In this document: positions 1,010 to 58,405 of the stretch, in pieces | Position numbering within the stretch: position 1 is the stretch's first letter | Layout: each line of letters opens with the position of its first letter | Source: Oscillospiraceae bacterium | GTDB lineage: Bacteria; Bacillota; Clostridia; Oscillospirales; UBA929 | DNA: 64,000 nucleotides | Direction of reading: 5' to 3' | Assembly (NCBI GenBank): GCA_031550325.1 | Contig: JAVBOR010000024.1 | Span: 4,062-68,061 of the forward strand | Program-made: the position numbers and the translations under genes | Notes under the pieces: model-generated | Told to the model about the DNA's origin: nothing | The model's database searches: none | What the model saw: only the letters and a program-made list of their open reading frames with translations

Positions 1010-1116
1010 AACCATTTCTCCCTTAACAACGCCCTTGATGAATTGGCACCATTTTATCACAGGGCTATGACCGATACAAGAGCCGCACGCCTTTTTGCAA
1101 GAGCGCCGGCCCAGGC

Positions 1117-1332
1117 TGTCAAAGAACCTTAGGTTCTTTGACAAAGCGGGGGTTTGGCTCGCGTCTTTGCAAAGACGCGCAAAGAAACGCTTTCCCGAAG
1201 TGAACCCGTGAAAGCGTTGTGGTTCAATCTTTTTCGATTTTCAGTCCAGCAAGGACCTGCCGGCTGCGCCGTCAGGCTCGACATGAAAACCGAAAAAGGA
1301 CGAGGGCGCGAGGACCTTTTTTGACAAAGCGG
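1117..1332 (+). repeat. Composite intergenic element copy R1 (modules A-B-C-D)
   Basis: Module A: TGTCAAAGAACC-tta-GGTTCTTTGACA at 1117-1143. Module B: GCGTCTTTGCAAAGACGC at 1161-1178. Module C: hairpin AACGCTTTC..GAAAGCGTT at 1186-1218. Module D: arms CTTTTTCGATTTTCA (1229-1243) and TGAAAACCGAAAAAG (1284-1298) around the core CAAGGACCTGCCGGCTGCGCCGTCAGGCTCGAC. Nearly the same sequence recurs at 43275-43480. Confidence 0.9.
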
Positions 1333-27222: not shown

Positions 27223-28913
27223 ACGCTTTGGTGGTCACCGCGCTGGCCGGAGAGCTGCGCCGTGAGCTGACGGGTGCGCGCGTGGATAGGATTGTTCAGC
27301 CCGCCCGCGATGAGATTCAGCTTGCGCTGCATACGGCCTCCGGCAATGTGAAACTGCTGATTTCGGCCGGAATGCGGTATCCGCGGGTTCATCTGACCAC
27401 GGTTGCGCGCGAAAATCCCGCGCTGCCGCCGATGTTTTGTATGCTTCTGCGCAAGCACCTGCAGGGAGCGCGCCTGTGCGGGCTGACGCAGCCGCCGCTG
27501 GAGCGTGTGCTGGATCTGGAGTGGGAGTGCGTGGACGAGCTTGGCGAGCCGGTTCGCAGGCATCTTATATGCGAGCTGATGGGGCGTCACTCCAATGTGA
27601 TTTTGGTCGGGTCGGACGGGCGCATTATGGACTGTATGCGCCGCGTGGACAGTGAAATGTCAGAGCGGCGGCAGGTGCTGCCCGGGCTTTTCTACGCGCT
27701 GCCGCCCGGACAGGGAAAGCTCAGCCCGATGGCGGTCTCTGAAGACGAGCTCGCCGCGCTTTGGACGCAAAAGCCACCCGAAACGCCTCCGGAGGACTGG
27801 CTTCTCCATACCTTTGGCGGCCTGTCCCCGCTGATTTGCCGGGAGCTGGCCTTTCAAGGGATGCCCGAGGCGCTGCTCAGGCTGCGCAGGACGGTTTGGG
27901 AGGGGATGTTTACCCCCTTTATGCTGTGCGAAAAAGACGAGATCAAGGATTTTTCCTGTGTCCCGATCGGCCAGTATGGTGCGCTGTATTCGTGCCGGCA
28001 GGCGCAGAGCTTTTCAGCGCTGCTGGATGAGTTTTACACAAAGGGCGATCAGCGCGAACATATGCGCCAGCGCGGGCAGTCGCTGCAAAAGACAGCCGCG
28101 GCAAACCGTGACCGCGCGCTGCGCAGAGTGGCGCTGCAGGAGCAGGAGCTTGCGCAGGCCATGAACCGCGAACGCCTGCGGGAATACGGCGACCTGCTCA
28201 TGGCCAATCTGCACATCGTGGGGCGCGGCGCGGCGCAGGTGGAGGTGGAGGATTTCTATCACCCCGAGTGCGCCCGGGCGGTCATTGCGCTCGACGCACA
28301 CAAGTCCCCGCAGCAAAACGCCGCAAAATACTACAAGGACTACGCCAAGGCCAAGAACGCCGAACAGCTGCTGGCCATCCAGATGGAGCGCGGTCGGCAG
28401 GAAGCGCAATACTGGGAGAGCGTGCTGGAAGAACTCGGCCGCGTTTCCAGTGAAAAAGAGCTGACCGAGATTCACGAGGAGCTGTCTCCGCCGCCGCGCA
28501 GCCGAAAGCAAAAGGAAAAGGTTCCGCAGCCGCACGCGTTTGTGTCGACGGAAGGCATTCGGTTTTACGCGGGGCACAACAACAGGCAAAACGACTATCT
28601 AACCTTTCGTCTGGCGGCACGTGGCGACCTGTGGATGCACGCCCAAAAGTTCCCCGGCTGCCATGTTGTCATCGACTGCTCTGAGCGCCGTCCCGGAGAC
28701 GATACTCTGCTGGAGGCTGCCGTGGTGGCCGCCACGCTGTCTCAGGGCCGCAACAGCCCGAAGGTTCCCGTGGACTACACGCTTGTCCGCCATGTCAAAA
28801 AACCGCCGGCCGCCGCCGCCGGCATGGTGATTTACGATCAGTTCAAGACGATTCTGGTGGAGCCGGATGAGGCGCTGCTGACGAGACTGCGCCGCGAAGA
28901 CCGCCGCCGCTGA
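27213..28913 (+). CDS. rqcH: NFACT-family ribosome quality-control protein RqcH (FbpA-like)
   Basis: 566 aa. Sequence: MPLDALVVTALAGELRRELTGARVDRIVQPARDEIQL..LMGRHSNVILV..AKYYKDYAKAKNA..GHNNRQNDYLTF..DLWMHAQKFPGCHVVI. Confidence 0.88.
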   Translation: MPLDALVVTALAGELRRELTGARVDRIVQPARDEIQLALHTASGNVKLLISAGMRYPRVHLTTVARENPALPPMFCMLLRKHLQGARLCGLTQPPLERVLDLEWECVDELGEPVRRHLICELMGRHSNVILVGSDGRIMDCMRRVDSEMSERRQVLPGLFYALPPGQGKLSPMAVSEDELAALWTQKPPETPPEDWLLHTFGGLSPLICRELAFQGMPEALLRLRRTVWEGMFTPFMLCEKDEIKDFSCVPIGQYGALYSCRQAQSFSALLDEFYTKGDQREHMRQRGQSLQKTAAANRDRALRRVALQEQELAQAMNRERLREYGDLLMANLHIVGRGAAQVEVEDFYHPECARAVIALDAHKSPQQNAAKYYKDYAKAKNAEQLLAIQMERGRQEAQYWESVLEELGRVSSEKELTEIHEELSPPPRSRKQKEKVPQPHAFVSTEGIRFYAGHNNRQNDYLTFRLAARGDLWMHAQKFPGCHVVIDCSERRPGDDTLLEAAVVAATLSQGRNSPKVPVDYTLVRHVKKPPAAAAGMVIYDQFKTILVEPDEALLTRLRREDRRR

Positions 28914-28981
28914 CGCATTTTTATTTTACTCCCGAGGCATGATTGGCCGGCATTGGAGGATACTACGCCTATTGTGTGCCG

Positions 28982-29190
28982 TTTTGTCAAAGAACCCTCG
29001 GTACTCTGACAAAACGAGAGAAGGATTGCGTCTTTGCGAAGACTGTAAAAAAGCGTTTTCCCGGAGTGGATCCATGAAGGCATTATGTTTTCAATCTTTA
29101 TTGGTTTTGGTCAGGCAAGGACCTGCCGGCAGCGCCATTTGGCTCGACGCGACAACTGACAAAGGGCGCGCAAAGGTCTTTTTTGACACG
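28982..29190 (+). repeat. Composite intergenic element copy R2 (A-B-C-D, partly degenerate)
   Basis: A: TGTCAAAGAACC..GGTACTCTGACA (28985-29011), followed by AAACGAG. B remnant: tgcgtctttgcgaagact. C remnant: ttttcccggagtggatcc. D core: CAAGGACCTGCCGGCAGCGCCATTTGGCTCGAC (29116-29148). Tail: GGTCTTTTTTGACA. Confidence 0.8.
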
Positions 29191-29265
29191 CTATACCCTA
29201 TCACGTGGATTCCGCTTTGCGTGGTACACAAGCTGCGAATCGTATGAAACGGAGCCTATTGACCT

Positions 29266-31407
29266 ATGCTGAAAAAACAGAAGAACTCTGAGCAGTTTAT
29301 GAACCCTATGCGCGATGTGCCGGTTTTTCTGGCCATACGGCAAGCGCTGACCCTCATGATCCCTTTGTTTATGGCGGGGTCTTTTGCTGTTCTGATCAAC
29401 AATCTCCCCATCGCGGCTTTCCAAAACGCCATGGAGAATTTGTTCGGGGACAACTGGAAGAATTTTGGCGCCTATTTGTACCAGGGTACATTTGCGATTA
29501 TGTCGGTTGGCGTCCTCATTGCGGTGAGCTACAATTTTGCAGCAAACGACAAGATGTCCCGTCTGCAGAACATCAATCCCTTTTTATGCTCACTCATTTC
29601 GCTGACATGTTTCTTCACGCTGCTTTACGCGCCCGACCAAACGCTGAGCCTGCGCTGGTTCGGCCCGTTGGGGCTGTTTGTGGCAATTGTAACGGCGCTG
29701 GTTTCCGTGAAGGTTTTCCAGCTTCTTTACCGTGTAAATGCGCTACATTTTAATGTCTACAGTGACGCTGCGGACTCGACCGTCAACCAGGCGATGAGCT
29801 CACTGTTTCCAGCGCTGATCACCATTGTCCTGTTTGTGGCGATCCGCATGCTGCTTGACCTGCTGGGCATTCAGGATATCCACGCGACGCTGGAGGAAGG
29901 ACTGCGGCAGCTGTTTATCAGGATGCCGGTGACCATTTGGACTGCCCTGCTGTTTGTAATGAGTACCCACTTTTTTTGGTTTATGGGCATGCATGGAAAC
30001 AACATCCTGGAACCTGTGGTGCAGAACTCGTTCGGGCCGGCGCTTTTGGTCAATCAAAACCTTGTTGCGCAGGGGCTGCCGCCCTCCGAGGTGTTCACCA
30101 AGCAGTTTTTTGACGTATTCGTGTATTTGGGCGGCTCCGGCGCGACCTTGTGCCTGCTGGTTGCGCTGTTTATCGGCGCGCGCCGCAGCAACGCGCGGCA
30201 GATCGCTGCAATTTCGGCGCTGCCCAGCGTCATCAATGTCAACGAGATGCTGATGTATGGGTTGCCGCTGATTTTCAACATGTATTTTATCATTCCGTTT
30301 ATCGGTGTGCCGCTGCTGCTGACGCTGACATCTTACGCTGCCATGTCGCTTGGCCTTGTCCCGCTGACCGTGGAGTCCGTCGAATGGACCACGCCCATAT
30401 TTCTGGGCGGCTACATGGCCACGAACTCTGTGGCGGGCATTGCCCTGCAGGCGTTTAACCTGACGCTTGGCGTCATGGCCTATCTGCCGTTTGTACGTAT
30501 GCATGAACGCCGTTTGGCGCGCGACAACGAACGCACGCTCAAGTCGCTCCAGCAGGAAACGCTGACCTTCAATCTGCGCCATTCCAAAGAGTTTCTCAAC
30601 AGGCGGGACGCCGAGGGAAACCTGGCGCGCATCCTCGCCAGAGACATGGAGCAGGATTTAAGCGAGAAGAAGATGCGGCTGGAGTACCAGCCGCTGGTGA
30701 ACAATGAGGGCCGCGTCGAGGCCGTCGAGGCGCTGCTTCGCTGGACACACGAGACCTACGGCGATATCGCTTCGCCCATGGTCATTCAGCTTGCGGAAGA
30801 GAGCGGACTGATTCATGAGTTCGGACTGTGGATTTTCCAGGAGTCGATTGACGCGCTGAAGGTGATGCGCGCTGCCGGCCTGGATATTGTGATCTCGGTC
30901 AACATCACGCCAGTACAGCTTGACTGGCCTGAGTTTGCGCCCCGCCTCGAGAAAATGCTGAACCAGTCCGGGCTGCCGCCCGACAAGGTGGAGATTGAAA
31001 TCACCGAACAGGTGGCGCTGGGGGGCCTCGACAGGCTCAAGCAGATCCACCGCCTGCGCTCCATCGGCGTTCGGATGGCCATGGACGACTTTGGCATGGG
31101 ACACAGCTCGCTGATGTACCTGAAGGAGTTTGACCTGAACACGATCAAGCTTGACGGCGGGCTGGTGCGCGAAGTGCTCACCAATCAAAACTGCCGAGAG
31201 ATCATAAACTCCATTGTCCACCTGAGCCGCTCGATGAATCTTCAGACCGTCGCCGAGTTCGTCGAAACCGAGCAGCAGCGGGACGCGCTGCAGGAGCTGG
31301 GCTGCAACTTGTACCAGGGCTATTACTACAGCCGTTCTCTTCCGCTGGATCGGCTTGTGGAGTACGCGCTGGCGCAGAACGCGTCCCATCCCGCGCACCA
31401 CGCGTAA
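29266..31407 (+). CDS. PTS EIIC-like (lactose/cellobiose family) membrane domain fused to an EAL cyclic-di-GMP phosphodiesterase domain
   Basis: 713 aa. The N-terminal ~410 aa are polytopic, with FLAIRQALTLMIPLFMAGSFAVLINNLP, which resembles CelB/ChbC EIIC. The C-terminal ~240 aa carry YQPLV..VEALLRW, N..VN, EITE, DDFGMGHSSL, KLDG, EFVETEQQ and QGYYYSR. All EAL catalytic blocks look intact. Confidence 0.8.
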   Translation: MLKKQKNSEQFMNPMRDVPVFLAIRQALTLMIPLFMAGSFAVLINNLPIAAFQNAMENLFGDNWKNFGAYLYQGTFAIMSVGVLIAVSYNFAANDKMSRLQNINPFLCSLISLTCFFTLLYAPDQTLSLRWFGPLGLFVAIVTALVSVKVFQLLYRVNALHFNVYSDAADSTVNQAMSSLFPALITIVLFVAIRMLLDLLGIQDIHATLEEGLRQLFIRMPVTIWTALLFVMSTHFFWFMGMHGNNILEPVVQNSFGPALLVNQNLVAQGLPPSEVFTKQFFDVFVYLGGSGATLCLLVALFIGARRSNARQIAAISALPSVINVNEMLMYGLPLIFNMYFIIPFIGVPLLLTLTSYAAMSLGLVPLTVESVEWTTPIFLGGYMATNSVAGIALQAFNLTLGVMAYLPFVRMHERRLARDNERTLKSLQQETLTFNLRHSKEFLNRRDAEGNLARILARDMEQDLSEKKMRLEYQPLVNNEGRVEAVEALLRWTHETYGDIASPMVIQLAEESGLIHEFGLWIFQESIDALKVMRAAGLDIVISVNITPVQLDWPEFAPRLEKMLNQSGLPPDKVEIEITEQVALGGLDRLKQIHRLRSIGVRMAMDDFGMGHSSLMYLKEFDLNTIKLDGGLVREVLTNQNCREIINSIVHLSRSMNLQTVAEFVETEQQRDALQELGCNLYQGYYYSRSLPLDRLVEYALAQNASHPAHHA

Positions 31408-31411
31408 GGCT

Positions 31412-31620
31412 GCCAAAGAACCTTTGGTCTAAGCGGTGCTTAAAGAAGAGACGAGCTGTGTTCGCCCGCGGGCGGTCAATGACCGCCCCTATATTGGCTC
31501 CCCGTCTCAACGCGGCTTTTGGCGAGGTTTTTGACAGTCTGAGGGCGTTCTCGGATTCACTCCGGGAACGCCCTGTTCTGGGCCTTTTTGACGGCTTTCC
31601 GCCGCCCGGTGCAGGCGGGC
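31412..31620. repeat. Mosaic of repeat modules (degenerate A, reversed C) and short GC hairpins
   Basis: CCAAAGAACCtttGGTC (31414-31430). GGGCGGTCA-a-TGACCGCCC (31469-31487). Reversed module C: AGGGCGTTC-tcggattcactccgg-GAACGCCCT (31542-31574). CCGCC-cggtgca-GGCGG (31601-31617). Confidence 0.7.
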
Positions 31621-31699
31621 GATCCCTGGAAGAGGCCGGCCGCTTTGAGGGCGTGCGGCATAGCCGGACTTTGATTGGCCAATACTATGCGCGGAGGGG

Positions 31700-33352
31700 A
31701 TGGCCTTGAAAAAGTCACTGCTTGCCGCCGTATTGGCTGTGAGTGTTTTGGCCGGGTCGGCCGGAGACGCGATGGCGGCGAAAAGCATAGAGAGCATCAG
31801 CTACCTGTTTGCGGGCAACACATCCATTTACACGCACAACGTGGGCAGAACAAAAGAGAATCTCACCTCGGTCTGTCCGGACTACTTTGAGGTAAGTTCA
31901 AGAGGGACTCTGATCAAAACGCGTGAGCCCGATCCGCTTTTTATTGAAACCATGCATGCGAGCGGGGTGCGCGTGGTCCCGTTTGTCAGCAACCATTGGG
32001 TTGCCGAGGCAGGAAGGGCGGCAACACAAAACGCAGAGCTCATCGGCGCGCAGCTCTCGCTGTGGATGGCCCAGTATGGATTTGACGGCGTAGATATTGA
32101 CATTGAAAACCTGAACCATAATGACCGCGAGGCGTTTACTGCGTTTATGCGAACATTGCGCCGGTGTCTGCCGAAGGGCGCCTATTTATCGGTTTGCGTC
32201 GCGCCCAACCCCTGGGGCATCAGCAAGGGCTGGCAGGGTCAGTATGATATGGCCGCGCTGGCGGACATATGCGATACGGTTTTTTTGATGGCATATGACG
32301 ACCATTATGATGGCGACGCGAATCCCGGCGCCGTGGCCGGTTTACCGTTTGTGGAAAAATCGGTTGTACAGGCGCTGAAGACTGTTCCGGCCTCCAAACT
32401 TGTTCTCGGTGTGCCCTTTTACGGGCGGTATTGGATAAAGGGAAACGCCACAGGGGGAAAGGCGCTGACAGTGTCGGACATTGGCAACTTGACGGCCCGG
32501 TACGAGTCCACGGTGTGGTATGACGGCGTGCAGCACTGCGCGCGCGCGAGTATGGTCATCAAGCCCAGCGACGTCTCCCAGGGGCTGTGGGGCGGCAAAA
32601 AGCTTGCGGCAGGGACGTATGACATCTGGTATGAAAATGACGCTTCGATCGAAAAAAAGCTTTCATTGATTAAAAAATATAACCTGAAGGGCGCAGGAAG
32701 CTGGGCGCTTGGACAGGAACCTGAAACCCTTTGGAAGGGCTACCGAAAATGGCTGTATGGGTTGCCGTTTAACGACATTGAGAGCCACTGGGCAGAGCCC
32801 GCCATTGCAAGAGTACACAACCTGGGCATTGTCTCCGGTACGGGCGGCGATACGTTTTCTCCCAACGAGAACCTCACGCGCGCCCAAGCCTGCGTACTTC
32901 TGTGCAAGATGCTGGACATTAAGCCCATGGAATCAGCCCCCTATGTCCCGGCGGACATTCAGGGGCACTGGGCCGAGGGCTATATGCTGTCGGCGATTTA
33001 CCGGCGGCTTTTTGAGGGCTATCCCGACGGCACCTATCGGCCCTCTGAGCCTGTGACACGGCAGGAAATGGCTGCTCTGATCGAAAAAACGCTGCACCTT
33101 CCTGAAACCATCGATTTTAACCAGAAGCTGTTTACTGACGTAAATCCCCAGAGCTGGTCCAATCGGGCGATCATCACGCTGGCGGTGTACAATGTCGTCA
33201 GCGGCTATACCGACGGTTCGTTCAGACCGCTGGACACTGTGCTGCGCGCTGAGGCGGTCAGCATGATTGATAAAATTGCCGAGCTTCCCAAAAAAGACTT
33301 TCCGATGGCATCGCTCTTCGAGGATCCGCCACAGATTGTTGAGCCGCGGTGA
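31700..33352 (+). CDS. GH18 glycoside hydrolase (YaaH/YdhD-like peptidoglycan or chitin hydrolase) with three C-terminal SLH domains
   Basis: Signal peptide MALKKSLLAAVLAVSVLAGSAGDAMA (alternative TTG start at 31706). GH18 catalytic motif FDGVDIDIE. The C-terminal repeats FNDIESHWAEPAI..TFSPNENLTRAQA, PADIQGHWAEGYM..YRPSEPVTRQEMA and FTDVNPQSWSNRAI..SFRPLDTVLRAEA are SLH modules. Confidence 0.85.
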   Translation: MALKKSLLAAVLAVSVLAGSAGDAMAAKSIESISYLFAGNTSIYTHNVGRTKENLTSVCPDYFEVSSRGTLIKTREPDPLFIETMHASGVRVVPFVSNHWVAEAGRAATQNAELIGAQLSLWMAQYGFDGVDIDIENLNHNDREAFTAFMRTLRRCLPKGAYLSVCVAPNPWGISKGWQGQYDMAALADICDTVFLMAYDDHYDGDANPGAVAGLPFVEKSVVQALKTVPASKLVLGVPFYGRYWIKGNATGGKALTVSDIGNLTARYESTVWYDGVQHCARASMVIKPSDVSQGLWGGKKLAAGTYDIWYENDASIEKKLSLIKKYNLKGAGSWALGQEPETLWKGYRKWLYGLPFNDIESHWAEPAIARVHNLGIVSGTGGDTFSPNENLTRAQACVLLCKMLDIKPMESAPYVPADIQGHWAEGYMLSAIYRRLFEGYPDGTYRPSEPVTRQEMAALIEKTLHLPETIDFNQKLFTDVNPQSWSNRAIITLAVYNVVSGYTDGSFRPLDTVLRAEAVSMIDKIAELPKKDFPMASLFEDPPQIVEPR

Positions 33353-33361
33353 GTCAGCCCG

Positions 33362-33664
33362 CTGTCAAAGAACCTTTTACGGTCAGAGAACCTTTGGTTC
33401 GCTGACAAAACGAGGGATGGATTAAACCGCTGTGGCGGCATGAAGGGAAACGGTTTCGAGAAATGAATTCCCGAAACCGTTGTGGTTCCTATTTTTCCTG
33501 GATTCGGTCCAGCAAGAACCTGCCGCCTGCGGCGTCAGGCTCGACGCGAATCCAGGAAAAGGACGAAGGCGCAAAGCGCTTTTTTGAAAGCCTGAGGCGT
33601 TCCCGGATTCATTCCAGGAACGCCTCAGGCTCAGGCTGTCAGAGAACCTTTGGTTCTCTGACAA
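33362..33664 (+). repeat. Composite intergenic element copy R3 plus an extra reversed C module and an extra A palindrome
   Basis: A: GTCAGAGAACC-ttt-GGTTCGCTGAC (33382-33406), followed by AAAACGAG. C: AACGGTTTCG..CGAAACCGTT (33449-33481). D arms: TTTTCCTGGATTCG (33493-33506) and CGAATCCAGGAAAA (33547-33560) around the conserved core. Reversed C: CTGAGGCGTTCC-cggattcattcca-GGAACGCCTCAG (33592-33628). A: TGTCAGAGAACC-ttt-GGTTCTCTGACA (33637-33663), followed by AAACGAA. Confidence 0.9.
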
Positions 33665-33786
33665 AACGAAAGGAGCGCGCGTGGGCATTTTTGCCAGGGT
33701 TATGTAACCAAAATGTTTGTTGAGTTCTCTGTCGAGCTATGATAGACTGTAGGGGAAATTGGGATAAAACGGAGTGTATAAAGGGT

Positions 33787-34947
33787 ATGAAGAAATGGTT
33801 TCTGGTCTTTTTATCAATGATGCTGCTGCTCAGCGCGTGTTCTGTCCTTTCCCCGGATCAGCAGGCGTCCGGTAAGGATAATCCTTCCTCGCAGCTTTCC
33901 CCGTCCCCATCTCCAACACCGACGCCAACGCCGACACCCAGCCCGACGCCTTCCCCCAGTCCCACGCCGACGCCCCGGCCCTCCATTGCCCCCGAAGATC
34001 TGGAGGTCTACACGGGCCCCCTCCATCATGTGTTTTACCACTTCTTGATCGCGTATCCCGAGGTCGCGCGCACAACGGGATACTGGAAAAACCTCGCGAC
34101 CGACTGCGTCACGCCGACCGAGTATTGGCGCTCTCTGGAGGAGCTTTACAAAAACGGCTATGTTCTGATGAATATCAACGATTACATCACCATCAACGAG
34201 GACGGGACGATCACCCAAAACCCCATCCTGGTGCCCAAGGGCAAAAAGCCGCTCGTCATGTCGTTTGACGACATGAGCTACTATTCAAAGAACCACGGAA
34301 AGGGCATATGTGACAAGGTCATTTTAGACGAAAACGGGGAGTTCGCCATGCTGACCCGGCTCGATGATGGGTCGGATAAGATCACATACGACAACGGGTG
34401 CATTCCGCTTTTGGAAAAGTTCTGTAAAGAGAACCCCGACTTTTCGCCGTTTGGCGACAAGGGTCTGCTGGCGATGACAGGATACGACGGCATTCTGGGC
34501 TACCGCGTCCAGCGCGACAGCCCAAACCGAGAGAGCGAAGTTAAGGACGCCAAGGTGGTTGTCGAAGCGCTCAAGGACGCAGGATGGACGTTTGGGTCGC
34601 ACAGCTACGGGCACATCCACATGCAGAAGGTTGGCGCCGAGCGCGTTCGCGAGGACACGCAGCATTGGGCAGACGAGATCATGCCGGTGGTCGGCGAAAC
34701 CTCTGTCTATGTTTTCCCGTTTGGCGAGTATACCAAGCACGATCAGCAGGAGTTCCAGATCCTGCTGCAAAACGGCTTTAAGATCCTGTGCGGCGTGGGC
34801 ATGCCGCCGTACGCCAAGGCGTACGAAACATACTATTTTATGGACAGACAGAACATTGACGGGTATTCGCTGAGCAACAGCGCCAAGTGGCTCAAGCCCT
34901 TGATGGACGCCCAGGTGGTATACAGTGTTGAAGAACGCGACAAGTAG
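33787..34947 (+). CDS. Lipoprotein with a polysaccharide deacetylase (NodB-like) domain
   Basis: ATG 33787. MKKWFLVFLSMMLLLSAC lipobox, then a (S/T)P-rich linker. Also PLVMSFDDMSYY and GSHSYGHIHM (DD and HxxxH metal motifs). Confidence 0.65.
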   Translation: MKKWFLVFLSMMLLLSACSVLSPDQQASGKDNPSSQLSPSPSPTPTPTPTPSPTPSPSPTPTPRPSIAPEDLEVYTGPLHHVFYHFLIAYPEVARTTGYWKNLATDCVTPTEYWRSLEELYKNGYVLMNINDYITINEDGTITQNPILVPKGKKPLVMSFDDMSYYSKNHGKGICDKVILDENGEFAMLTRLDDGSDKITYDNGCIPLLEKFCKENPDFSPFGDKGLLAMTGYDGILGYRVQRDSPNRESEVKDAKVVVEALKDAGWTFGSHSYGHIHMQKVGAERVREDTQHWADEIMPVVGETSVYVFPFGEYTKHDQQEFQILLQNGFKILCGVGMPPYAKAYETYYFMDRQNIDGYSLSNSAKWLKPLMDAQVVYSVEERDK

Positions 34948-40428: not shown

Positions 40429-41873
40429 GACTGTACGAGCTGACGGCGGCGGAACTCGCCGGACTGATGGTCTCGCGCCAGGTGAGCGCCGTCGAAATTT
40501 GCGAGGACTTTTTGGCGCGTTCGGAGGCGGTGGAGCCGCTTGTCGGCGCGTTTATCACGCGTTGCCCGAACAGGGCGATGCGGGCGGCGCAGGCAGTGGA
40601 CGACAAACGCGCCGAGTCGGAGCGTCTGGCGCCGCTGGCCGGGGTGCCGATTGCCGTGAAGGACAATATCTGCATAAGCGGACTCGGGACCACCTGCTCG
40701 TCCGCCATGCTTAAAGACTTTGTGCCGTTTTACACCGCTTTTGCTGCTGAGCGCGCCGAACGGGCGGGGATGGTGGTGCTGGGCAAGACCAACTTGGACG
40801 AGTTCGGCATGGGCTCGACCTGTGAAACGGCGCGCCTGCAGTCCACCAAGAACCCACACGACCTCGGCTGTGTTCCGGGCGGGTCGTCGGGCGGAAGCGC
40901 CGCCTGCGTCGCGTCGGGACAGGCTCCGCTGGCACTCGGCTCGGACACCGGCGGCTCGATTCGCTGTCCCGCCTCTTACTGCGGCGTTGTCGGGCTGCGG
41001 CCCACCTATGGCTCCGTGTCGCGGTACGGGCTTGTGGCCATGGCCTCGTCGCTGGATCAGATCGGCCCGATGGGCAGGAGCGTGCTGGACGTCGCGCTTT
41101 TGTTTGACACGATCAGAGGGATTGATGAGAGAGACGCCACGAGCTTGGCTTCGCCCTACGGCTGTGTCGCCGACGCGCTTGAAGGCGGCATAAAAGGGTT
41201 GAGAATCGGTTTGCCCAGGGAGTTTTTTGACGTTGTTTCGCCGCAGGAGCGCGACAGGGTCAGAGAGGCCGCCGTCGCGTTTGAGCGCATGGGCGCGCAC
41301 CTTGTCGAGCTTTCACTGCCGACAACCAGACACGCGCTGGCGATCTATCTGGCGCTGTCAACCGCCGAGGCTTCCTCCGACCTGGCGCGCTTTGACGGGG
41401 TGAGGTACGGCCATCGCACCGAACACTTTGAGACCCTCTCCCAGCTCTATGAGCGTTCGCGCGCCGAGGGATTCGGGCCGGAGGTCAAGCGCCGTGTGAT
41501 GCTGGGCGCCTACGTGCTGTCGTCCGGTGAGAATTATTACGAGCGGGCGGTCAGTGCCCGAAGGACGCTCCGCGCGGAGTTCAGCGGGGCGTTTGAGGTC
41601 TGCGATCTTATCCTGACGCCGTCCACGCCCACCGTGGCGCCGCGCAGGGAAGAGATGGGGGATCCTGTGAAGGTGTACGGGGGAGACAGCTGTCTGGTGT
41701 CAGTCAACCTGGCCGGGCTGTGCGCCGTTTCGGTGATGTGCGGGACGGTAGGAACACTTCCGGTGGGAATGCAGCTGATCGGGGACGCCTGGCAGGAGCC
41801 GGCTTTGCTGCGCGCCGCCTATGCGTACGAGCAGTTTGCCGGCGGCCCGCGGCCCGTGGCGAGGCGCGTATGA
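40425..41873 (+). CDS. gatA: Asp/Glu-tRNA amidotransferase subunit A
   Basis: ATGA overlap with gatC. Amidase signature: GVPIAVKDNI..TTCSS..L..F.P.Y.A....R....G.V.LGKTNLDEFGMGS..GGSSGGSAA..LGSDTGGSIR.PA..CG. Confidence 0.93.
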
Positions 41874-43360
41874 CGTACGAACTGACGGTAGGGCTGGAGA
41901 TCCACGTGGAACTCGACACCGAGAGCAAGGCGTTTTGCGCATGCCCCAACCGCTTCGGAGCCGCGCCGAACACGCTGATTTGCCCTGTCTGCGCCGGTTT
42001 TCCCGGCGCACTGCCCGTACTTAACGAGTCTGTCGTTGAGCGCGCGGTGCGCGTGGGCAAGGCTTTTGGCTGCACCATCAACATGGTCAGCCGACATGAC
42101 CGGAAAAACTACTATTATCCTGATTTGCCAAACGCCTATCAAATCACCCAGCAGCGCGTTCCGATCCTGTCCGGCGGCGCGTTTTTTCTGTATGAGGAGG
42201 GCGGGCTTTCCTCCGTTGCGCTTGACCACATCCACATGGAGGAGGACGCCGGAAAGCTGCTGCACGGCGCCGGGGACGACTATACGCGCATTGACTTCAA
42301 CCGCGCGGGCGTTCCGCTTTTGGAGATCGTCACACAGCCCTGTCTGCACACGCCCGAGCGGGCGCAGGCGTTTTTGGAGGCGCTGCGTCAGACACTGGTG
42401 GAGCTGGAGGTTACGGACGGCAAGATGCATGAGGGCTCCATCCGCTGTGACGTCAATGTCTCGGTCGGCAGCGGCGCTCAGATGGGCGTCAAGGTTGAGC
42501 TCAAAAACATCGGCACCTTTTCGGGCGTGCGGCGCGCCATCGCCTTTGAGTTCAAGCGACAGACGCGGCTTTTGGAAAAAGGCGATCCGGTTGTGTCGGA
42601 GACGCGCCGGTGGGACGATATGGCCGGGATGACCCTTGCCATGCGCGAAAAGGAGAGCCTGCAGGATTACCGGTTTTTCTTTGAGCCGAATTTGCAGCCC
42701 ACGGTTGTTTTGCAGGAGCTGTGTGACCGGGTTATCGTTGCCGAGCTTCCGCAGGCACGTCTGCTGCGGTATGTCCGCGAGTTTTCTCTGCCTCCCGCGG
42801 AGGCCGCCCTTTTGTGCGTGCGGCCCCGATGGGCCTACTTCGAGGCCTGTCTTGTTTGCGGGGCGCCGCCGCGCGCCGCCGCCAACTGGATTTGCGGAGA
42901 GCTTGCGCGGCTTTCAGGCGGCAATGTGGACGCGCTGCCGCCCGAAAGACTCTGTCAGCTGATACGCTGCGTCGAGCAGGGCGCTGTGAGCAGCTCGGCC
43001 GGGAAAGCCGCGCTGGCGGCCATGCTGGAGTTTGGCTGGACGGCAAACCGGGCGATCGGAGAGCTAGGGCTGGACCAGATGCGCGACAACGACGCGCTCA
43101 GCGCACTTGCCGCGCAGATTGTCGCCGACCATCCCCAGCCGGCGGCGGCATATCGGGCGGGAAAAACCAACGCGCTGGACTTTCTGGTGGGGCGCGGGAT
43201 GAAGGCGTCCGGCGGGCGGGCCGATCCCGCGGCGTTGCGGGCGCTGCTGAAAAGCGCTCTGGAGTGCTGCAGTCTGTCAAAGAACCACGAGTTCTTTGAC
43301 AAAGCGGGGGCAGGATCGCGTCTTTGTGAAGACGCGCAAAGAAACGCTTCCCCGGAGTGA
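41870..43360 (+). CDS. gatB: Asp/Glu-tRNA amidotransferase subunit B, with a repeat-derived C-terminal extension
   Basis: ATGA overlap with gatA. Sequence: MTYELTVGLEIHVELDTESKAFC..R.DRKNYYYPDLP..YQITQ. The conserved C-terminus ends near ..RADPAALRALLKSAL. The last ~30 codons (ECCSLSKNHEFFDKAGAGSRLCEDAQRNASPE) and the TGA stop lie inside repeat copy R4. Confidence 0.9.
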   Translation: MTYELTVGLEIHVELDTESKAFCACPNRFGAAPNTLICPVCAGFPGALPVLNESVVERAVRVGKAFGCTINMVSRHDRKNYYYPDLPNAYQITQQRVPILSGGAFFLYEEGGLSSVALDHIHMEEDAGKLLHGAGDDYTRIDFNRAGVPLLEIVTQPCLHTPERAQAFLEALRQTLVELEVTDGKMHEGSIRCDVNVSVGSGAQMGVKVELKNIGTFSGVRRAIAFEFKRQTRLLEKGDPVVSETRRWDDMAGMTLAMREKESLQDYRFFFEPNLQPTVVLQELCDRVIVAELPQARLLRYVREFSLPPAEAALLCVRPRWAYFEACLVCGAPPRAAANWICGELARLSGGNVDALPPERLCQLIRCVEQGAVSSSAGKAALAAMLEFGWTANRAIGELGLDQMRDNDALSALAAQIVADHPQPAAAYRAGKTNALDFLVGRGMKASGGRADPAALRALLKSALECCSLSKNHEFFDKAGAGSRLCEDAQRNASPE

Positions 43361-43480
43361 ATCCGGGAAAGCGTTGTGGTTCTGTCTTTATCGGTTTTCA
43401 GAGAGGCGAGGACCTGCCGGCTTTGCCGTCAGGCTCGACGTGAAAACCGATAAAGGACGAGGATGCGAGGGGCTTTTTGG
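43275..43480 (+). repeat. Composite intergenic element copy R4 (A-B-C-D, best preserved)
   Basis: A: TGTCAAAGAAC-cacga-GTTCTTTGACA (43275-43301). B: GCGTCTT-tgtg-AAGACGC (43318-43335). C: AAACGCTT-CCCCGGAgtgaaTCCGGG-AAGCGTT (43342-43375). D arms: CTTTATCGGTTTTCA (43386-43400) and TGAAAACCGATAAAG (43441-43455), a perfect 15 bp. Confidence 0.9.
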
Positions 43481-43499
43481 GAACGGTATAGTTTAATGA

Positions 43500-45251
43500 C
43501 TATGCCTCGACGCGGGACGGACTGAGCGCTTGCGCGGATTCGGAGCCGTCGGGCTCGCTTTGCGGACGATGGGAGATGTTCTGAATGGTGTCGTACGTCT
43601 TGGAAACGGCCTGGCTGATCTCCTGAATCATTTGATTGATGGCGCCTGTGGATGAAACCGCCTGTTTGGATACCTCGGCGGTCTCCGAAACGGTCTTTTT
43701 GGAGCTTTTCGCCAGGCTGCGGATCTCCTCGGCCACCACGGCAAACGCCTTGCCGTGAACGCCCGCGCGGGCAGCCTCGACAGAGGCGTTGAGCGAGATG
43801 ATGTTGATGTGCATGGCGATCAGGTCAATTTCATTGGCCATGGTGCCGTATTGCTTGAACGCCCGGTTGACGTCCTGGATGTTGGACAGGATGTCGTCGG
43901 AGAGCGTTTTGACATTGGAGATATCGGACAGAATGATCTCAAGGTTGTTAATATTCTTCTCCTGGATGGACAAAACCGCGGCGTGCTCGGACTGAATGTC
44001 GTTTCGGGTTTTTTCAATGCAGTTCATCGGCGTATTAACGCCGATAGCCACCTTGCCAGCCATGTTCCGGCAGCTGTCCGAGCCGCACGCGCCGCAGTCA
44101 AACTGGCGCTGGACGGACGTTTGCTTGCCCAAAAGCTCAAAGCCCTTCTCGATATCCTCGCCCGTAATCGTCTGGGTGTAAACGCGCTTGGAGGTGTAAT
44201 GCCTGACAAAGTCGTTGAGATTAAAAATATGGTCAAAGGTCTCATACAGCTTGTCAAAATAAGCCTTTTCGCGGTTTTGTGTGACCTGCTTGCGCTCCCT
44301 GTCCATGATGGAGTTGATTTCAAACATATCCTTGTGATGATTGCAGCCTGTGCCCAGATTGCAGCCCTCGGGACAGTTGAGTACGTCAAAGATAGCTGGA
44401 AGATGGTCTTTCTTTTGGACGGAAAACTGATCCAGCGCCCGGTAGACCACCGCCTGCCCCTCGCATTTGTCTATGCGCAGCGCCTTGCCCAGATAAAACT
44501 CTACGTTTTCTTTCAGCCCGCCGGGCATGGAGTAGAGCCTTCCGAGCACGGAGTCCGGACTGTCAAAGGAGCCCGGCTGCTGGGGAAGCGTGATGTGGTG
44601 CCTGTGAATATAGTCGCGCAGCTTCTTGAAGGTCACGTTATATTTGGCAAGGCCCGTGGCGTCAAACTCATCAGCCTTGGCGATACAGGGCGAGAGCACG
44701 GCGAGAGAATCCGTAATGTTTTTGTTTTTTTTCATATAAATGGCCGTACACAGCATAGGGCTGTGGATGGGGGAGAGGTTGGGGATAAGCTCGGGGCGGT
44801 ACATCTGGATGTACTTGACAATGGCCGGGCACGGCTGGGTGATCACCGACGCCGGCTGATTTTTTTGGATAAACCGTATGTGCGCCCAGGTGCAGATGTC
44901 CGCACCCAGAGAAACGTCGAAGATGTTGCGCACGCCCAGCTGACGAAGCCAGGCCAGGATGCGCCCGAACTCCTCCAGATTGGCGCGCCCCGCCGGGGCG
45001 GCAAACATGGAAATGCGCGCGCCGTTGCTGAGATCGGACAGAAACCGTTCGGTATCGTCCTCGTAATCGCGAGACTCGTGCCGACAGGCCTGGATACACG
45101 CGCCGCAGGCGATGCACCTGTCGTTGTTGATGCGCACCTTGATGGCGCCGTTCTCCATGAACGCGACGTTGGCCTCTTCCACGGGGCAGACCCGGATACA
45201 GCGGTTGCAGCCGACACATGTTGACAGATCATTGATGATGAGCTTTCTCAT
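43500..45251 (-). CDS. [FeFe]-hydrogenase-like (H-cluster domain) protein fused to a methyl-accepting chemotaxis signalling domain; putative sensory hydrogenase
   Basis: 583 aa, AGAGGGG SD. Two ferredoxin-type motifs (CVGCNRCIRVCP, CIACGACIQAC). H-cluster-like motifs are TQPCP (canonical TSCCP), SPCIAK (canonical MPCxxK) and NCPEGCNLGTG (canonical MACxxGCxxGGG). An extra Cys motif reads CGACGSDSC-x16-C. The C-terminal MCP core is IDLIAMHINIISLNASVEAARAGVHGKAFAVVAEEIRSLAKSS. Confidence 0.8.
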   Translation of the reverse strand: MRKLIINDLSTCVGCNRCIRVCPVEEANVAFMENGAIKVRINNDRCIACGACIQACRHESRDYEDDTERFLSDLSNGARISMFAAPAGRANLEEFGRILAWLRQLGVRNIFDVSLGADICTWAHIRFIQKNQPASVITQPCPAIVKYIQMYRPELIPNLSPIHSPMLCTAIYMKKNKNITDSLAVLSPCIAKADEFDATGLAKYNVTFKKLRDYIHRHHITLPQQPGSFDSPDSVLGRLYSMPGGLKENVEFYLGKALRIDKCEGQAVVYRALDQFSVQKKDHLPAIFDVLNCPEGCNLGTGCNHHKDMFEINSIMDRERKQVTQNREKAYFDKLYETFDHIFNLNDFVRHYTSKRVYTQTITGEDIEKGFELLGKQTSVQRQFDCGACGSDSCRNMAGKVAIGVNTPMNCIEKTRNDIQSEHAAVLSIQEKNINNLEIILSDISNVKTLSDDILSNIQDVNRAFKQYGTMANEIDLIAMHINIISLNASVEAARAGVHGKAFAVVAEEIRSLAKSSKKTVSETAEVSKQAVSSTGAINQMIQEISQAVSKTYDTIQNISHRPQSEPDGSESAQALSPSRVEA

Positions 45252-45423
45252 TTGACCCCTCTTTTTGTTCGGCGGAATGAAGCGCTCAACGTCCCAGCCC
45301 GCCTCTTGATCAAATTCCTATGAATGTAAAAAAAAGGATACCACAAGGATTATCGATATATGCCGGATGAACTTTATCTCAGGGCGCAAAAAGCGCCGCG
45401 GGCCGTCAAATAAGCCTCAAAAT

Positions 45424-45492
45424 ACAAGCTGGGCTCTCCCGGATTCACTCCGTGAGAGCCCAGCTTGTAGACAAACCGAAGATTTGTCTACA
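45424..45492 (-). repeat. Reversed module C hairpin (15-bp stem) plus an A-like palindrome
   Basis: ACAAGCTGGGCTCTC-ccggattcactccgt-GAGAGCCCAGCTTGT (45424-45468). GTAGACAAA-ccgaaga-TTTGTCTAC (45468-45492), followed by AAAACGA. Confidence 0.85.
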
Positions 45493-45555
45493 AAACGATG
45501 ATAAAGTGATCGGCTCTGTGGAGCTTCACAAAAAAACGTTTCTCTGTAAACCGCC

Positions 45556-46641
45556 TCAGCTGTTCATCAGCTCGGTCCAGAGGCTGTCATAGAGAGCGGC
45601 CGTCTGCGCCGAAAGTGTGGTGTACGCCTCACAGCGCGCCAGCTCCTGCTCGGAGGGATAAGCGGACTTTGCGCTTTCGTCGAGCTCGTCGTACACGGTT
45701 TGAATCGGCGTATTGTAGCGCGTATATGCGCAGTTGGCGATCCCCGCCGTCACGGAGCACAGGTAATTTACGTAGACCTCGGCCGCTTTTACGTTCTGGC
45801 AGGACGCGGGGATGCACAGCGCCTGCACAAACAGAGGCGCGCCCTCGCGCGGCAGCACATAGGAAAGGGTCTCGTCCTCGGAGGCAAGGCGCAGGGCGGT
45901 CGCTGAGCGGACAAGCGCCGCGACGGCCTCGCCGGAGAGCATTTTTTCGGAGACAAGCGCGTCATCATAAGCCTGCACAAGCGGCTTTTGCTGTCCCAGG
46001 AGCGTAAAGGCGGCGCGAAGCTCGGCCTCACTGGCGGTGTTGACGCTGTAGCCTAAGTACTTCAGCGCGGCGGAAACATTGTCGCGCCTGTCGCCGGACA
46101 TCAGGATGCCGCCGGCCGACCCGTCGTCAAACAGAGCGCTCCAGCTGTCCACGGCCCACTCCACGGCCAGGCTGCTGTAGACGAGGCCGAGGGTGTCCCA
46201 GAGATAGGCGATGGAATACGCGCCGTCGGGATCATAGTACGGGGAGGTAAAGCGCGCCATCTGCGCGGCGGACAGGGGAAGGCCCGCATAGTTCAGCGCG
46301 CTCAGCAGGTTTTCTGTCCGCAGACGGTCGACGATATAGTCGGGCGCGATCACAACGTCATAGGCGTTCGGGCCGGAAACCTCGGCATAAAGCTCCTCGG
46401 CGGAAGAGACAACGTGATGAACGATTTCATGTCCGGACTCCAGCTCAAAGGTGCTAATGAGCGAGGGCTCGATGAGGTTTTCCAGGCTGATGACCGAAAC
46501 AGAGCCCGTATCAACGTCGTCCGGCGACGGGCTGGGGGACGCCGGAACCTCGCTGCTTGAAGGGGAGCTCGACGGCAAAGGGCTGGCTGTGCAGGCAACC
46601 AGCAGAAAAAGCGCCAGAAAACAGAGCAGCATTCTTTTCAC
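45556..46641 (-). CDS. Extracellular solute-binding lipoprotein, PotD/PotF (polyamine) family
   Basis: I prefer the GTG 46641 start (VKRMLLCFLALFLLVAC lipobox) over the track start 46707. An S/P-rich linker follows. Sequence: YDVVIAPDYIVDRL..PYYDPDGAYSIAYLWDTLGLVY. I see no ABC permease or ATPase genes nearby. Confidence 0.65.
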   Translation of the reverse strand: MKRMLLCFLALFLLVACTASPLPSSSPSSSEVPASPSPSPDDVDTGSVSVISLENLIEPSLISTFELESGHEIVHHVVSSAEELYAEVSGPNAYDVVIAPDYIVDRLRTENLLSALNYAGLPLSAAQMARFTSPYYDPDGAYSIAYLWDTLGLVYSSLAVEWAVDSWSALFDDGSAGGILMSGDRRDNVSAALKYLGYSVNTASEAELRAAFTLLGQQKPLVQAYDDALVSEKMLSGEAVAALVRSATALRLASEDETLSYVLPREGAPLFVQALCIPASCQNVKAAEVYVNYLCSVTAGIANCAYTRYNTPIQTVYDELDESAKSAYPSEQELARCEAYTTLSAQTAALYDSLWTELMNS

Positions 46642-46675
46642 AGTCGGTCTGTCCTTTCCAAGTGGGGTGGCGGCT

Positions 46676-47635
46676 TTAGGAGAGTCCGTGCGGGCAAAGA
46701 TCCTCAAAACTGCGGCGCAGAGCGAAACTCCGGCCGTTGAGATACTGAAGCTGGCCGGCAGAAGAGGTAAAGCGGAACGTCAGACGACAGGCGCAAAGCG
46801 CTTGCCCGCGCCGCTTATAAGGCTTGTCCATCGCCAGAGAGCCGTATTTTCCGTCGCCGAGCAGAGGGGTGCCCCGCGAGGCGAGCTGCACGCGAATTTG
46901 ATGCGTCCGTCCTGTGAGCAGCGTGCACTCAAGCAGCGTGAGGCCGCTGCGGTTCTCCAGCGTCTTGTATGTCATGCGCGCGAGCTTCGCGCCCGGCTCA
47001 GGCGTATTGCGCGTGTAGACCATATTTTTTTTGGAGTCCTTAAACAGATAGTCTTCCAGGGTTCCCTCGGACGGCCTTGGCCTGCCGTGCACCACGCAAA
47101 GATACTTTTTCTCGATTTCACGGTCGCGGATCTTTTCAGAGAGAATCCGGAGCGCTTCGGCGGTCTTGGCCGCGAGCACGAGACCTTCGGTGTTGCGGTC
47201 AAGCCTGTGGCAAAGTGACGGCGTGAAGCTGCTTTCCCGCTTGGGATCCCACTGCCCGGTGCTGAGCATATGGCGGCGGAAGCGATTTTCAAGCGTGTCC
47301 GTTTCACGCCGGTCCGAGCCGGACTGGCAGGGAAGCCCTGCCGGCTTGAGCAGTACGCAGATGTGCTGGTCCTCAAACAAAATGTCGGGTCTGGCGTCGG
47401 GAAGAACCTGCGGGGCGGGGGTCTGCTGTTCGACAACGTACACGCGCAGGATGTCCCCAAGCGCAAGGTGCGTGTCCGGCGCGCAGCGCTTGCCGCCAAG
47501 CTTAATGTTGCGCGTGCGGATGCCCTGTTGAATCTGGGAGGACTTAAGACCGGGCATGGCCTTGGACAGAAAGCGGTCCACACGCTGGCCGGCGTCATTG
47601 GGGCCGATGATAAACTCTTTCACAAAAAACCTCAC
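46676..47635 (-). CDS. RluA-family pseudouridine synthase with an N-terminal S4 domain
   Basis: GQRVDRFLSK..(S4), HRLDRNTEGLVLAAK catalytic motif, KKYLCVVHG, GRTHQIRVQLA. The start is GTG 47635, or GTG 47623, which lies 6 nt after GAGG. Confidence 0.85.
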   Translation of the reverse strand: MRFFVKEFIIGPNDAGQRVDRFLSKAMPGLKSSQIQQGIRTRNIKLGGKRCAPDTHLALGDILRVYVVEQQTPAPQVLPDARPDILFEDQHICVLLKPAGLPCQSGSDRRETDTLENRFRRHMLSTGQWDPKRESSFTPSLCHRLDRNTEGLVLAAKTAEALRILSEKIRDREIEKKYLCVVHGRPRPSEGTLEDYLFKDSKKNMVYTRNTPEPGAKLARMTYKTLENRSGLTLLECTLLTGRTHQIRVQLASRGTPLLGDGKYGSLAMDKPYKRRGQALCACRLTFRFTSSAGQLQYLNGRSFALRRSFEDLCPHGLS

Positions 47636-56611: not shown

Positions 56612-56802
56612 AGGGTTTAGTCCAGAGGGGCTGTATTGTCGAAAGGGGTGTTCATGGAAGTTTCAAAAAAGCATTCAAAGTCGGGGCAATCTTCAGTGGA
56701 GCCCTGCTGGTCAGCAGACTCCTGAATCTGGCCATTAAGGCTTTGAGAAGTATAAATCAGGATGCGAATAAAGAGCAGGCGTCGTCTTGACGGCCTCAGC
56801 CA

Positions 56803-56925
56803 GGAAGGACTTTCCCGGAGTGAATCCAGGAAAGTCCTTCCATCGTTTTGTCCAAACTTCGCAAACAGCCTTGGCGGTTAAACCTGAACTCTAGTTTTGT
56901 CAAAGAATCTCAGGTTCGTTGACAG
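56803..56925 (+). repeat. Module C hairpin (13-bp stem) plus an imperfect A palindrome
   Basis: GGAAGGACTTTCC-cggagtgaatcca-GGAAAGTCCTTCC (56803-56841). TCGTTTTGTC is the reverse of the GACAAAACGA flank. TTTTGTCAAAGAATC-tca-GGTTCGTTGACA (56895-56924). Confidence 0.85.
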
Positions 56926-56940
56926 CCTGACGCGGCATGG

Positions 56941-58186: not shown

Positions 58187-58345
58187 TTTGTACAAGAACC
58201 GCGGTTTTTGTACAAAGCCGGAGGTTGCAGAGAGAGCTTTCCCGGATTGAATCCGTGAAAGCTCTGCGATTTAATCTTTTTTGGCATCGGCCGGCAAGGA
58301 TCTGCCAGCTGCGCCATCAGACTCGACGTGAATCCGCGAAAAAGG
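58187..58345 (+). repeat. Composite intergenic element copy R5 (variant A, C, degenerate D)
   Basis: A variant: TTTGTACAAGAACC-gc-GGTTTTTGTACAAA (58187-58216). C: AGAGCTTTC-ccggattgaatccgt-GAAAGCTCT (58232-58265). D core: CAAGGATCTGCCAGCTGCGCCATCAGACTCGAC (58295-58327). Confidence 0.8.
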
Positions 58346-58405
58346 ATGGGAGCATAAAAGGGGCTTGCTACAGGCTGTTCAAAGAAGCGGAGGCCCCTTG
58401 ACGGC

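Follow-up and report, generated by a model that had tools for sequence, protein, structure and literature searches.

The hairpin at positions 45424-45468 raises the question of what keeps the apex of a hairpin constant while the stem below it changes, and of why such a hairpin turns up in both orientations. We study it within a window of 64,000 nucleotides, the whole stretch of DNA analysed here (G000:C47:4062-68061; genomes carry G numbers and contigs C numbers), which belongs to a draft genome of an Oscillospiraceae bacterium with 2.04 Mb and 58.6% G+C in 69 contigs. The answer that we favour, with a probability of about 0.78, is that the hairpin, named module C, is the central hairpin of a MITE that targets hairpins, and that the copies found alone or flipped arose secondarily, as whole hairpins were duplicated and elements nested and decayed.

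Occurrence and fold of the hairpin

The initial annotation listed seven such hairpins, four forward and three reversed. All seven are present, and each folds into one strong hairpin (DNA-fold z-scores between -5.0 and -9.4). Their 15-mer loop, with up to two mismatches, occurs six times in the window where 0.13 occurrences are expected, and for the 11-nt core GGAGTGAATCC, when up to one mismatch is allowed, the count is seven against 0.9 expected. Two copies in the window were absent from that list, namely 43343-43375, which is the best one and has a perfect loop, and the degenerate 29050-29085. Across the genome, the core is found 284 times with up to one mismatch. Requiring at least eight paired flanking positions outside the core leaves a set of 192 hairpins with the core, compared to 0-5 for five shuffled cores.

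What had been described as a 15-nt loop is conserved as an apex but is not a loop: folding and counting resolve it into a 1x1 mismatch, a mini-stem of 3-4 bp and a pentaloop. The mismatch, at the second position from the core, is C.T in 79 of 173 distinct internal copies, and 37 have C-G there. The mini-stem GGA/TCC covaries to GAA/TTC (with G-C as the middle pair in 129 copies and A-T in 21), and GAA/TTC is the predominant form in another genus. The pentaloop (RTRAA) is most often GTGAA (80), followed by ATGAA (52) and GTAAA (11). The stems closing this apex had been called completely different from each other. This overstates the case, as the inner ~8 bp are conserved, with positions 1, 3, 4, 5 and 7 constant at ~75-92% (CCCTT.C / G.AAGGG); the stem positions that covary with pairing kept are 6 and 8-11.

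The hairpins had also been said to lack a clear U-run. By the rule of our terminator scan this is correct, and the scan of 45200-45620 reports no intrinsic terminator, but the 45424 hairpin is followed by AUUUUG on the minus strand. A search of the whole window with Rfam 15 at the gathering threshold has no match other than RNase P, and the region 28800-34000 searched with Rfam at E up to 10 gives only chance-level matches. No tRNA or tmRNA is found alongside the Rfam scan of the window.

A 215-bp repeat with covarying stems

When the repeat copies in the window are aligned, module C appears as the central hairpin of a ~215-bp repeat bounded by terminal inverted repeats (TIRs). From head to tail, the layout includes a head TIR forming the A hairpin, a linker, the B hairpin, another linker, the C hairpin, a long D hairpin with a conserved core, and a tail TIR. 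The head TIR is CAGnCTGTCAAAGAACC and the tail TIR is CTTTTTTGACAGGCTGA(G), and no conserved ORF is seen between them. Using an nhmmer profile built from six copies, we find 472 matches in the genome, of which 117 are full-length; together the matches make up 2.9% of the genome, and many contig ends fall within the repeat. About 147 of the 192 C hairpins are inside these matches, at a fixed place and in one orientation. The element thus has the TIRs, the target duplication (described below), the short non-coding multi-copy character and the insertion sequence with matching ends in the same genome by which we tested for a MITE. Table 1 collects the MITE copies and the hairpins of the window.

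Table 1. MITE copies, fragments and C-type hairpins located in the window (window coordinates).
Feature	Position	Strand	Remarks
Full MITE copy R1	1115-1329	+	Module C at 1186-1218 (+)
Full MITE copy R2	28982-29195	+	Degenerate module C at 29050-29085 (+)
Full MITE copy R3	33379-33594	+	Module C at 33449-33481 (+), apex variant GAAATGAATTC, mini-stem GAA/TTC
Full MITE copy R4	43273-43489	+	Module C at 43343-43375 (+), perfect apex
Full MITE copy R5	58187-58379	+	Module C at 58232-58265 (+), apex GGATTGAATCC
Junction hairpin	31542-31574	-	Directly after decayed MITE tail TIR (..GAGGTTTTTGACAGTCTG, ~31524-31541)
Junction hairpin	33592-33628	-	Between R3 tail TIR (..CTTTTTTGAAAGCCTGAG) and solo module A (33635-33663)
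Junction ("solo") C-type hairpin	45424-45468	-	Core GGCTCTC-ACGGAGTGAATCCGG-GAGAGCC at 45432-45460
Truncated MITE fragment	45461-45545	+	Head TIR abutting the 45424 hairpin, degenerate remainder; read by eye
Module A hairpin TAGACAAACCGAAGATTTGTCTA	45468-45492	+	In the 45461-45545 fragment; followed by linker CAAAACGATGATAAAG and B-type hairpin GGCTCTGTGGAGCTTC
Rearranged-junction C-type hairpin	56803-56841	+	Common to a plus-strand B-C remnant (56779-56849) and an inverted A-B fragment (56806-56926, minus)

Two further observations concern the copies themselves. An ORF (41720-43360) crosses modules A and B of R4 and stops at a TGA (43358-43360) in the pentaloop region of its module C. A MITE variant of ~400 nt, with ~190 nt extra within module D, is found at C66:83150-83650.

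With the rough gene calls made for this analysis, 36% of the full copies lie in convergent spacers (14% for all spacers) and 7% in divergent ones (21% for all spacers). By the same gene calls, the orientation of full copies to the upstream gene is weakly biased, with 34 co-directional and 23 antisense, and the solo C hairpins show no co-orientation at all (9 co-directional against 16).

The proposal that structure constrains the hairpin, with the apex conserved and changes in the stem compensated, is borne out. A 65-row alignment has changes on both sides in 12 of 14 pairs, and its score is reached by none of 500 shuffles; because the rows were picked for pairing, the covariation counts from this alignment are informative and the percentage paired is not. 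The hairpins include 41 fully Watson-Crick 9-bp stem types, joined in a minimum spanning tree by at least 54 pair switches. Amongst unselected internal copies, 69-92% of the cells at positions 3-11 are Watson-Crick. For 83 MITE lineages below 90% identity to each other, the C apex and the linkers retain ~1.4 bits per position while the outer stems are near-random. Conservation of the C apex in these lineages is roughly on a par with that of the D core and the A arms, and the only hypervariable parts of the MITE are the outer stems of the B, C and D hairpins.

The conservation is not confined to this genome. The apex with its inner stem is found 289 times in the host genome, 35 times in the same-genus genome G001, and 8, 4, 2, 1 and 1 times in other genomes of the family, with a reversed-pattern control that gives zero everywhere; in all, the apex is kept in five genera of the family. 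A covariance model of the hairpin searched against 150 other genomes of the order has, outside the family, only weak matches (22-35 bits), which are mostly ordinary terminators. The initial annotation had named two outcomes that would count against its proposal, a lack of independent compensatory pairs and a loop confined to the window. We find neither, because the stem changes are compensated by pair switches and the apex is conserved beyond the window, the genome and the genus.

Paired changes of this kind could in principle arise without selection. Template-switch correction of quasi-palindromes is an established mutational mechanism, and intrastrand template switching could have kept the stems paired while recent descent made the apex seem conserved. 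The mismatch types show no strand bias and individual young copies look neutral, as such a process would have it. It is nevertheless at odds with the 83 diverged lineages, which keep the apex and linkers next to near-random outer stems, and with genomes of other genera, which keep the apex although they lack B and D and have wholly different A stems. Correction would moreover erase the conserved 1x1 mismatch, which persists in the form C.T in the 79 distinct copies counted above. We consider correction without selection quite unlikely as the source of the pattern.

At what level selection acts is suggested by the youngest copies. In a young subfamily of 55 copies, module C changes at 0.9% per site compared to ~1.0-1.5% overall, a comparison of low power. 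As the C hairpins of young copies change at the background rate, they give no sign of selection at each locus. Our best guess is that selection acts between the (master) lineages that proliferate and favours a hairpin or cruciform with a defined geometry, so that the apex is kept while the outer stems drift in pairs; a host function at each locus would not be what is selected.

One subfamily of the MITE is a chimera. It has ~30 near-identical copies (for example C3:22931, C5:13038 and C9:97136), and its module C combines the left arm GGGTGACTTTCCC of the dominant subfamily with the right arm GTGAAAGAGTTGTGG of another, so that only the inner ~7 bp pair. These arms imply recombination at the conserved apex followed by amplification.

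Short relatives of the element occur in other genera. In G009, G004 and G012 (L011, L017, L066-L078) we find units of ~100 nt in which an A-type hairpin is joined by the linker AACAGGGATA to a C hairpin that keeps the apex, with AAAGAATTTACGGGGG as the tail. These A-C units have no B and D, and their A stems are quite different; there are 13 pattern matches, none of them in G000 or G001. In most cases the unit follows directly on an upstream gene of the same orientation. Between several units and the next start codon there are 7-21 nt, as for rplI, glmM, mnmE and an ATPase subunit gene, with a similar unit before dnaB, so the tail may supply a ribosome-binding site. A ATTTACGGGGG cassette is not found in the host genome. 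Because the A-C units keep the apex and the first linker without B and D, these two are the most persistent interior parts of the element group.

The same observations bear on the suggestion that the hairpin is a site for an RNA-binding protein, or more generally a functional RNA hairpin, such as a processing or stability element or part of a terminator, that the host keeps. A conserved apex on covarying stems is what such a hairpin would look like, the elements lie just after stop codons in 3' regions, and transcription would run from the 45424 hairpin into AUUUUG. The A-C units face the downstream gene in the first nine cases out of nine, and they continue into AAAGAATTTACGGGGG and often a start codon (rplI, dnaB, glmM, mnmE). 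Other features count against it. Stems read on the forward strand have no excess of G.U over A.C (69 against 118 in the unselected set, and 25 against 32); the gene orientation is weak for full copies and absent for solo hairpins; module C of the young copies changes at the background rate; there is no Rfam family and no terminator call; and the chimeric subfamily was amplified although its outer C stem is unpaired. We therefore do not favour an RNA-binding-protein site, and a host-kept RNA function in general is unlikely.

A matching insertion sequence and duplicated hairpins

The genome has one IS1182-family transposase gene, at the start of contig C15. It scores 378.9 bits with NF033551 (IS1182), above the cut-off of 270, and also matches PF05598, PF01609 and PF13751. 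The complete insertion sequence has 1511 bp, 47% G+C (58.6% for the genome) and an open frame of 478 aa, as reconstructed from two contig ends, the reverse complement of C11:36-~165 joined to C15:1-1413, by an overlap of only 35 nt. Its terminal inverted repeats are CTCAGCCTGTCAAAAAAG and CTTTCTTTGACAGGCTGAG, and each end adjoins a perfect copy of the 17-nt hairpin AGGACACAATGTGTCCT, a bidirectional terminator in its original state (AAAAAG-hairpin-CTTTTT). At 17 of 17 positions, the MITE tail consensus CTTTTTTGACAGGCTGA agrees with the reverse complement of the left end of this element, and the MITE head CAGGCTGTCAAAGAA matches its right end. Genome G009, which is of a different genus and also has the MITE, carries several copies of an IS with 76-81% identity, and a hairpin abuts all three of its assembled right ends. 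In the same-genus genome G001, which has 35 C hairpins and is 80% complete, an IS1182 homologue is not found.

Some findings count against this pairing of MITE and insertion sequence. Apart from its ends, the MITE shows no similarity to the IS, which also lacks a hairpin like C. It follows that the MITE did not arise from the IS by simple deletion, and the lack of the hairpin argues against module C as an essential site for the transposase. The youngest and most abundant MITE subfamily (~55 copies) has the variant TIR CTGTAGACAAA instead of CTGTCAAAGAA. As no IS with an exact CTGTAGACAAA end is found in the genome, a different or unassembled transposase may move this subfamily. A search for an autonomous element bounded by MITE modules (head-ORF-tail) finds only one lipoprotein-like gene and one LRR protein gene between partial matches, and the genome searches find no TnpB (PF07282) or IS110 (PF02371). 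The genome also has one rve-family gene, on contig C44, and C28:133-402 and C36:26-178 are ~90%-alike C-terminal fragments of another IS5/IS1182-like transposase, both at contig starts; one of these two fragments has three in-frame TGA codons, and neither is followed by a MITE-like end.

Like the IS1182-family element, the MITE is found between copies of whole hairpins. About 13 full copies are flanked by direct repeats of 25-47 nt, each of which is a whole hairpin. C-type hairpins account for three of these, of which two have the orientation of the inserted copy and one the opposite orientation; four are A, B or D modules, and the rest are host terminators. We present the case at C64:13750/14000 as a clean example of nesting, in which an older B and C are followed by a complete new MITE, then by an identical C, and then by the older D. 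Similar nested cases are C32:13760/14012 and C24:36343/36599. A second recurrent hairpin, GGGGCGGTCA(N)TGACCGCCCC, which is found in the window at 31465-31490 and at several MITE flanks, also serves as a MITE target.

The targets are not chosen for the C apex. Target loops are diverse, and C-type targets occur in both loop orientations. The C-type share of the targets is ~22-23% (10 of ~45 left flanks of the young subfamily, read by eye, and 3 of the 13 duplications), and C hairpins are 12-28% of the intergenic hairpins, so target use matches abundance and no preferential targeting of C hairpins is seen. Amongst intergenic hairpins with a perfect stem of at least 9 bp, 51% are inside MITE matches. 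With about half of these hairpins supplied by MITEs, new copies often land on modules of older copies.

The solo C hairpins nearly always touch a MITE head or tail. The exceptions include C3:17251, C14:24809, C19:6164 and C40:8884, which are C-type hairpins with unique flanks and no MITE trace. At 45424-45468, downstream of the minus-strand gene 45556-46707, the hairpin has an outer stem ACAAGCTG/CAGCTTGT of 8 bp (45424-45431 and 45461-45468). The left side is a 9-nt remnant of a MITE tail TIR (..TACAAGCTG), and the right side is the start of a head TIR (CAGCTTGTAGACAAA). The MITE fragment that begins with this head TIR was recognised by comparison with copies on contigs C21 and C64; nhmmer has no match there. 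For the hairpin at 33592-33628, the outer CTGAG/CTCAG pairs are also TIR tips. Tail and head TIRs have tips that can pair with one another, and a hairpin enclosed by the two is thereby lengthened by additional outer pairs. The occurrence of the hairpin in both orientations is real, with three reversed copies present, but two of these three (45424 and 33592) have complementary outer pairs because those pairs come from the MITE terminal inverted repeats.

The solo and reversed copies in the window, including 45424-45468, fit an origin as duplicated target hairpins at MITE junctions. The direct evidence of duplication comes from three loci elsewhere in the genome. The four solos of the window have no twin copy, and for them we infer the origin from the genome-wide pattern and from their junction positions. 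An empty orthologous site for 45424 was looked for in the same-genus genome G001, which has no DNA match. In about five copies, A-B is joined to a flipped loop, a form that would need an extra step of inversion or recombination.

The initial annotation had suggested, as one example, a different agent, a RAYT-type transposase that binds REP sequences. In this reading, a domesticated tyrosine transposase of the IS200-like kind (RAYT) spreads module C, as a REP-like palindrome, and recognises it in single-stranded DNA. C hairpins are indeed abundant, extragenic, found in both orientations and arranged in mosaic clusters, like BIMEs, and the genome does encode a Y1 (HUH) transposase. This enzyme, the only one of its kind in the genome, however scores 124.4 bits with the IS200 model NF033573 and 29.6 bits with the RAYT model NF047646 (REP_Tyr_transpos), whose cut-off is 80, so the search for a RAYT gene is negative. 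A C-type hairpin does precede six of the nine assembled IS200 left-end junctions by 4-8 nt, but the other three have plain terminators, and what the nine have in common is a hairpin with a T-run and not the C apex. The IS200 has an unrelated end hairpin of its own, CCACCGGCTATGCCGGTGG, and is multi-copy: we find at least nine identical left ends (the right ends are unassembled), which is not the arrangement of a single-copy transposase flanked by inverted REPs. Finally, module C has no GTAG-type head and is not free-standing, with ~75% of its copies (the ~147 of 192) at a fixed place in a TIR-bounded MITE that has hairpin target duplications. A REP palindrome moved by a RAYT is highly improbable.

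As for the IS200 itself, a hairpin with a T-rich run is always found 4-8 nt ahead of its left end GGAGACAACCACCGG, and two of the nine hairpins follow tRNA genes. The element is found at contig ends (C52:9663-10118, and on C58, C67, C22, C21, C20, C8, C48 and C44), and the last third of its tnpA is unassembled.

The mechanism that we propose for the hairpin-targeting MITE is as follows. The MITE is most likely mobilised in trans by the 1511-bp IS1182-family element. The transposase would insert at the base of a DNA hairpin and leave a copy of the whole hairpin on either side, presumably through staggered strand transfer where an extruded cruciform leaves the duplex. New copies would hit, either way round, the C (or A, B or D) hairpins of copies already present. 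Through nesting, duplication of whole hairpins and later decay, solo C hairpins would then be left at junctions, some of them flipped relative to their neighbours, with stems probably lengthened by the complementary TIR tips on either side.

Why the MITE should carry such hairpins is a matter for speculation. It is possible, though doubtful, that C (and B and D) are self-made landing pads, extrudable cruciforms by which the element multiplies its own safe insertion sites. If true, this would explain both the nested arrays and the lineage selection for the apex, with the mini-stem and the RTRAA pentaloop nucleating extrusion. Less likely is a second reading, in which the apex is an RNA signal for a host protein, as hinted by the A-C units of sister genera in front of the ribosome-binding sites of rplI, dnaB, glmM and mnmE.

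Relation to known systems

A MITE and a matching IS1182-family element in one genome, with identical end sequence and the same duplication of whole hairpins, make a pairing that can be tested. Elements of this kind can also mimic a protein-recognised motif with free stems, where outer pairs come from TIRs and nesting scatters the hairpin in both directions. This calls for caution in motif hunting, and in the annotation of terminators and REP-like repeats in gut Clostridia.

Amongst short repeats, Correia/NEMIS in Neisseria and RUP and BOX in Streptococcus pneumoniae are non-coding, TIR-bounded or modular intergenic repeats with stable hairpins that depend on a resident IS in trans. They duplicate short fixed targets (such as TA, or 2-9 bp). 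The MITE described here instead duplicates entire hairpins, whose length varies, and about half of its landing sites are provided by the element itself. Duplication of long variable targets, in the form of terminator stem-loops, is reported for IS1630 and ISMhom-1 of the IS30 family in Mollicutes. Those elements use an IS30-family transposase, whereas the partner here belongs to the IS1182 family.

REP/BIME sequences with RAYTs, in enterobacteria and Pseudomonas, are likewise very abundant extragenic palindromes that occur either way round, form mosaic clusters behind gene ends and maintain their stems through compensatory changes (PMC2817692). They differ in that here there is no RAYT and no GTAG head, the hairpin is a module of a TIR-bounded element with target duplications, and the spread is explained by a DDE transposase and not by a Y1 enzyme.

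The closest comparison is with IS1272 and TnSha1, IS1182-family elements of Staphylococcus. These target inverted-repeat or stem-loop structures of varying sequence, 22-30 bp in length, just downstream of genes, and IS1272 replaces (deletes) the target inverted repeat, with no target duplication (PMC5678879, PMC4923244). More generally, IS1182 elements are reported to be over-represented in convergent spacers (PMC9208149). The two systems have in common a DDE transposase of the IS1182 family and hairpin targets, and the extra inverted-repeat copies at the left end of IS1272 resemble module A. Here, unlike in IS1272, the whole hairpin (17-47 nt) is duplicated on both sides, and there is a non-autonomous derivative of ~215 bp with a conserved three-hairpin interior in ~470 copies or fragments. 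The genome would thus hold a natural record of a DDE transposase for which DNA shape decides the target and which duplicates that target, in contrast to the deletion caused by its relative IS1272.
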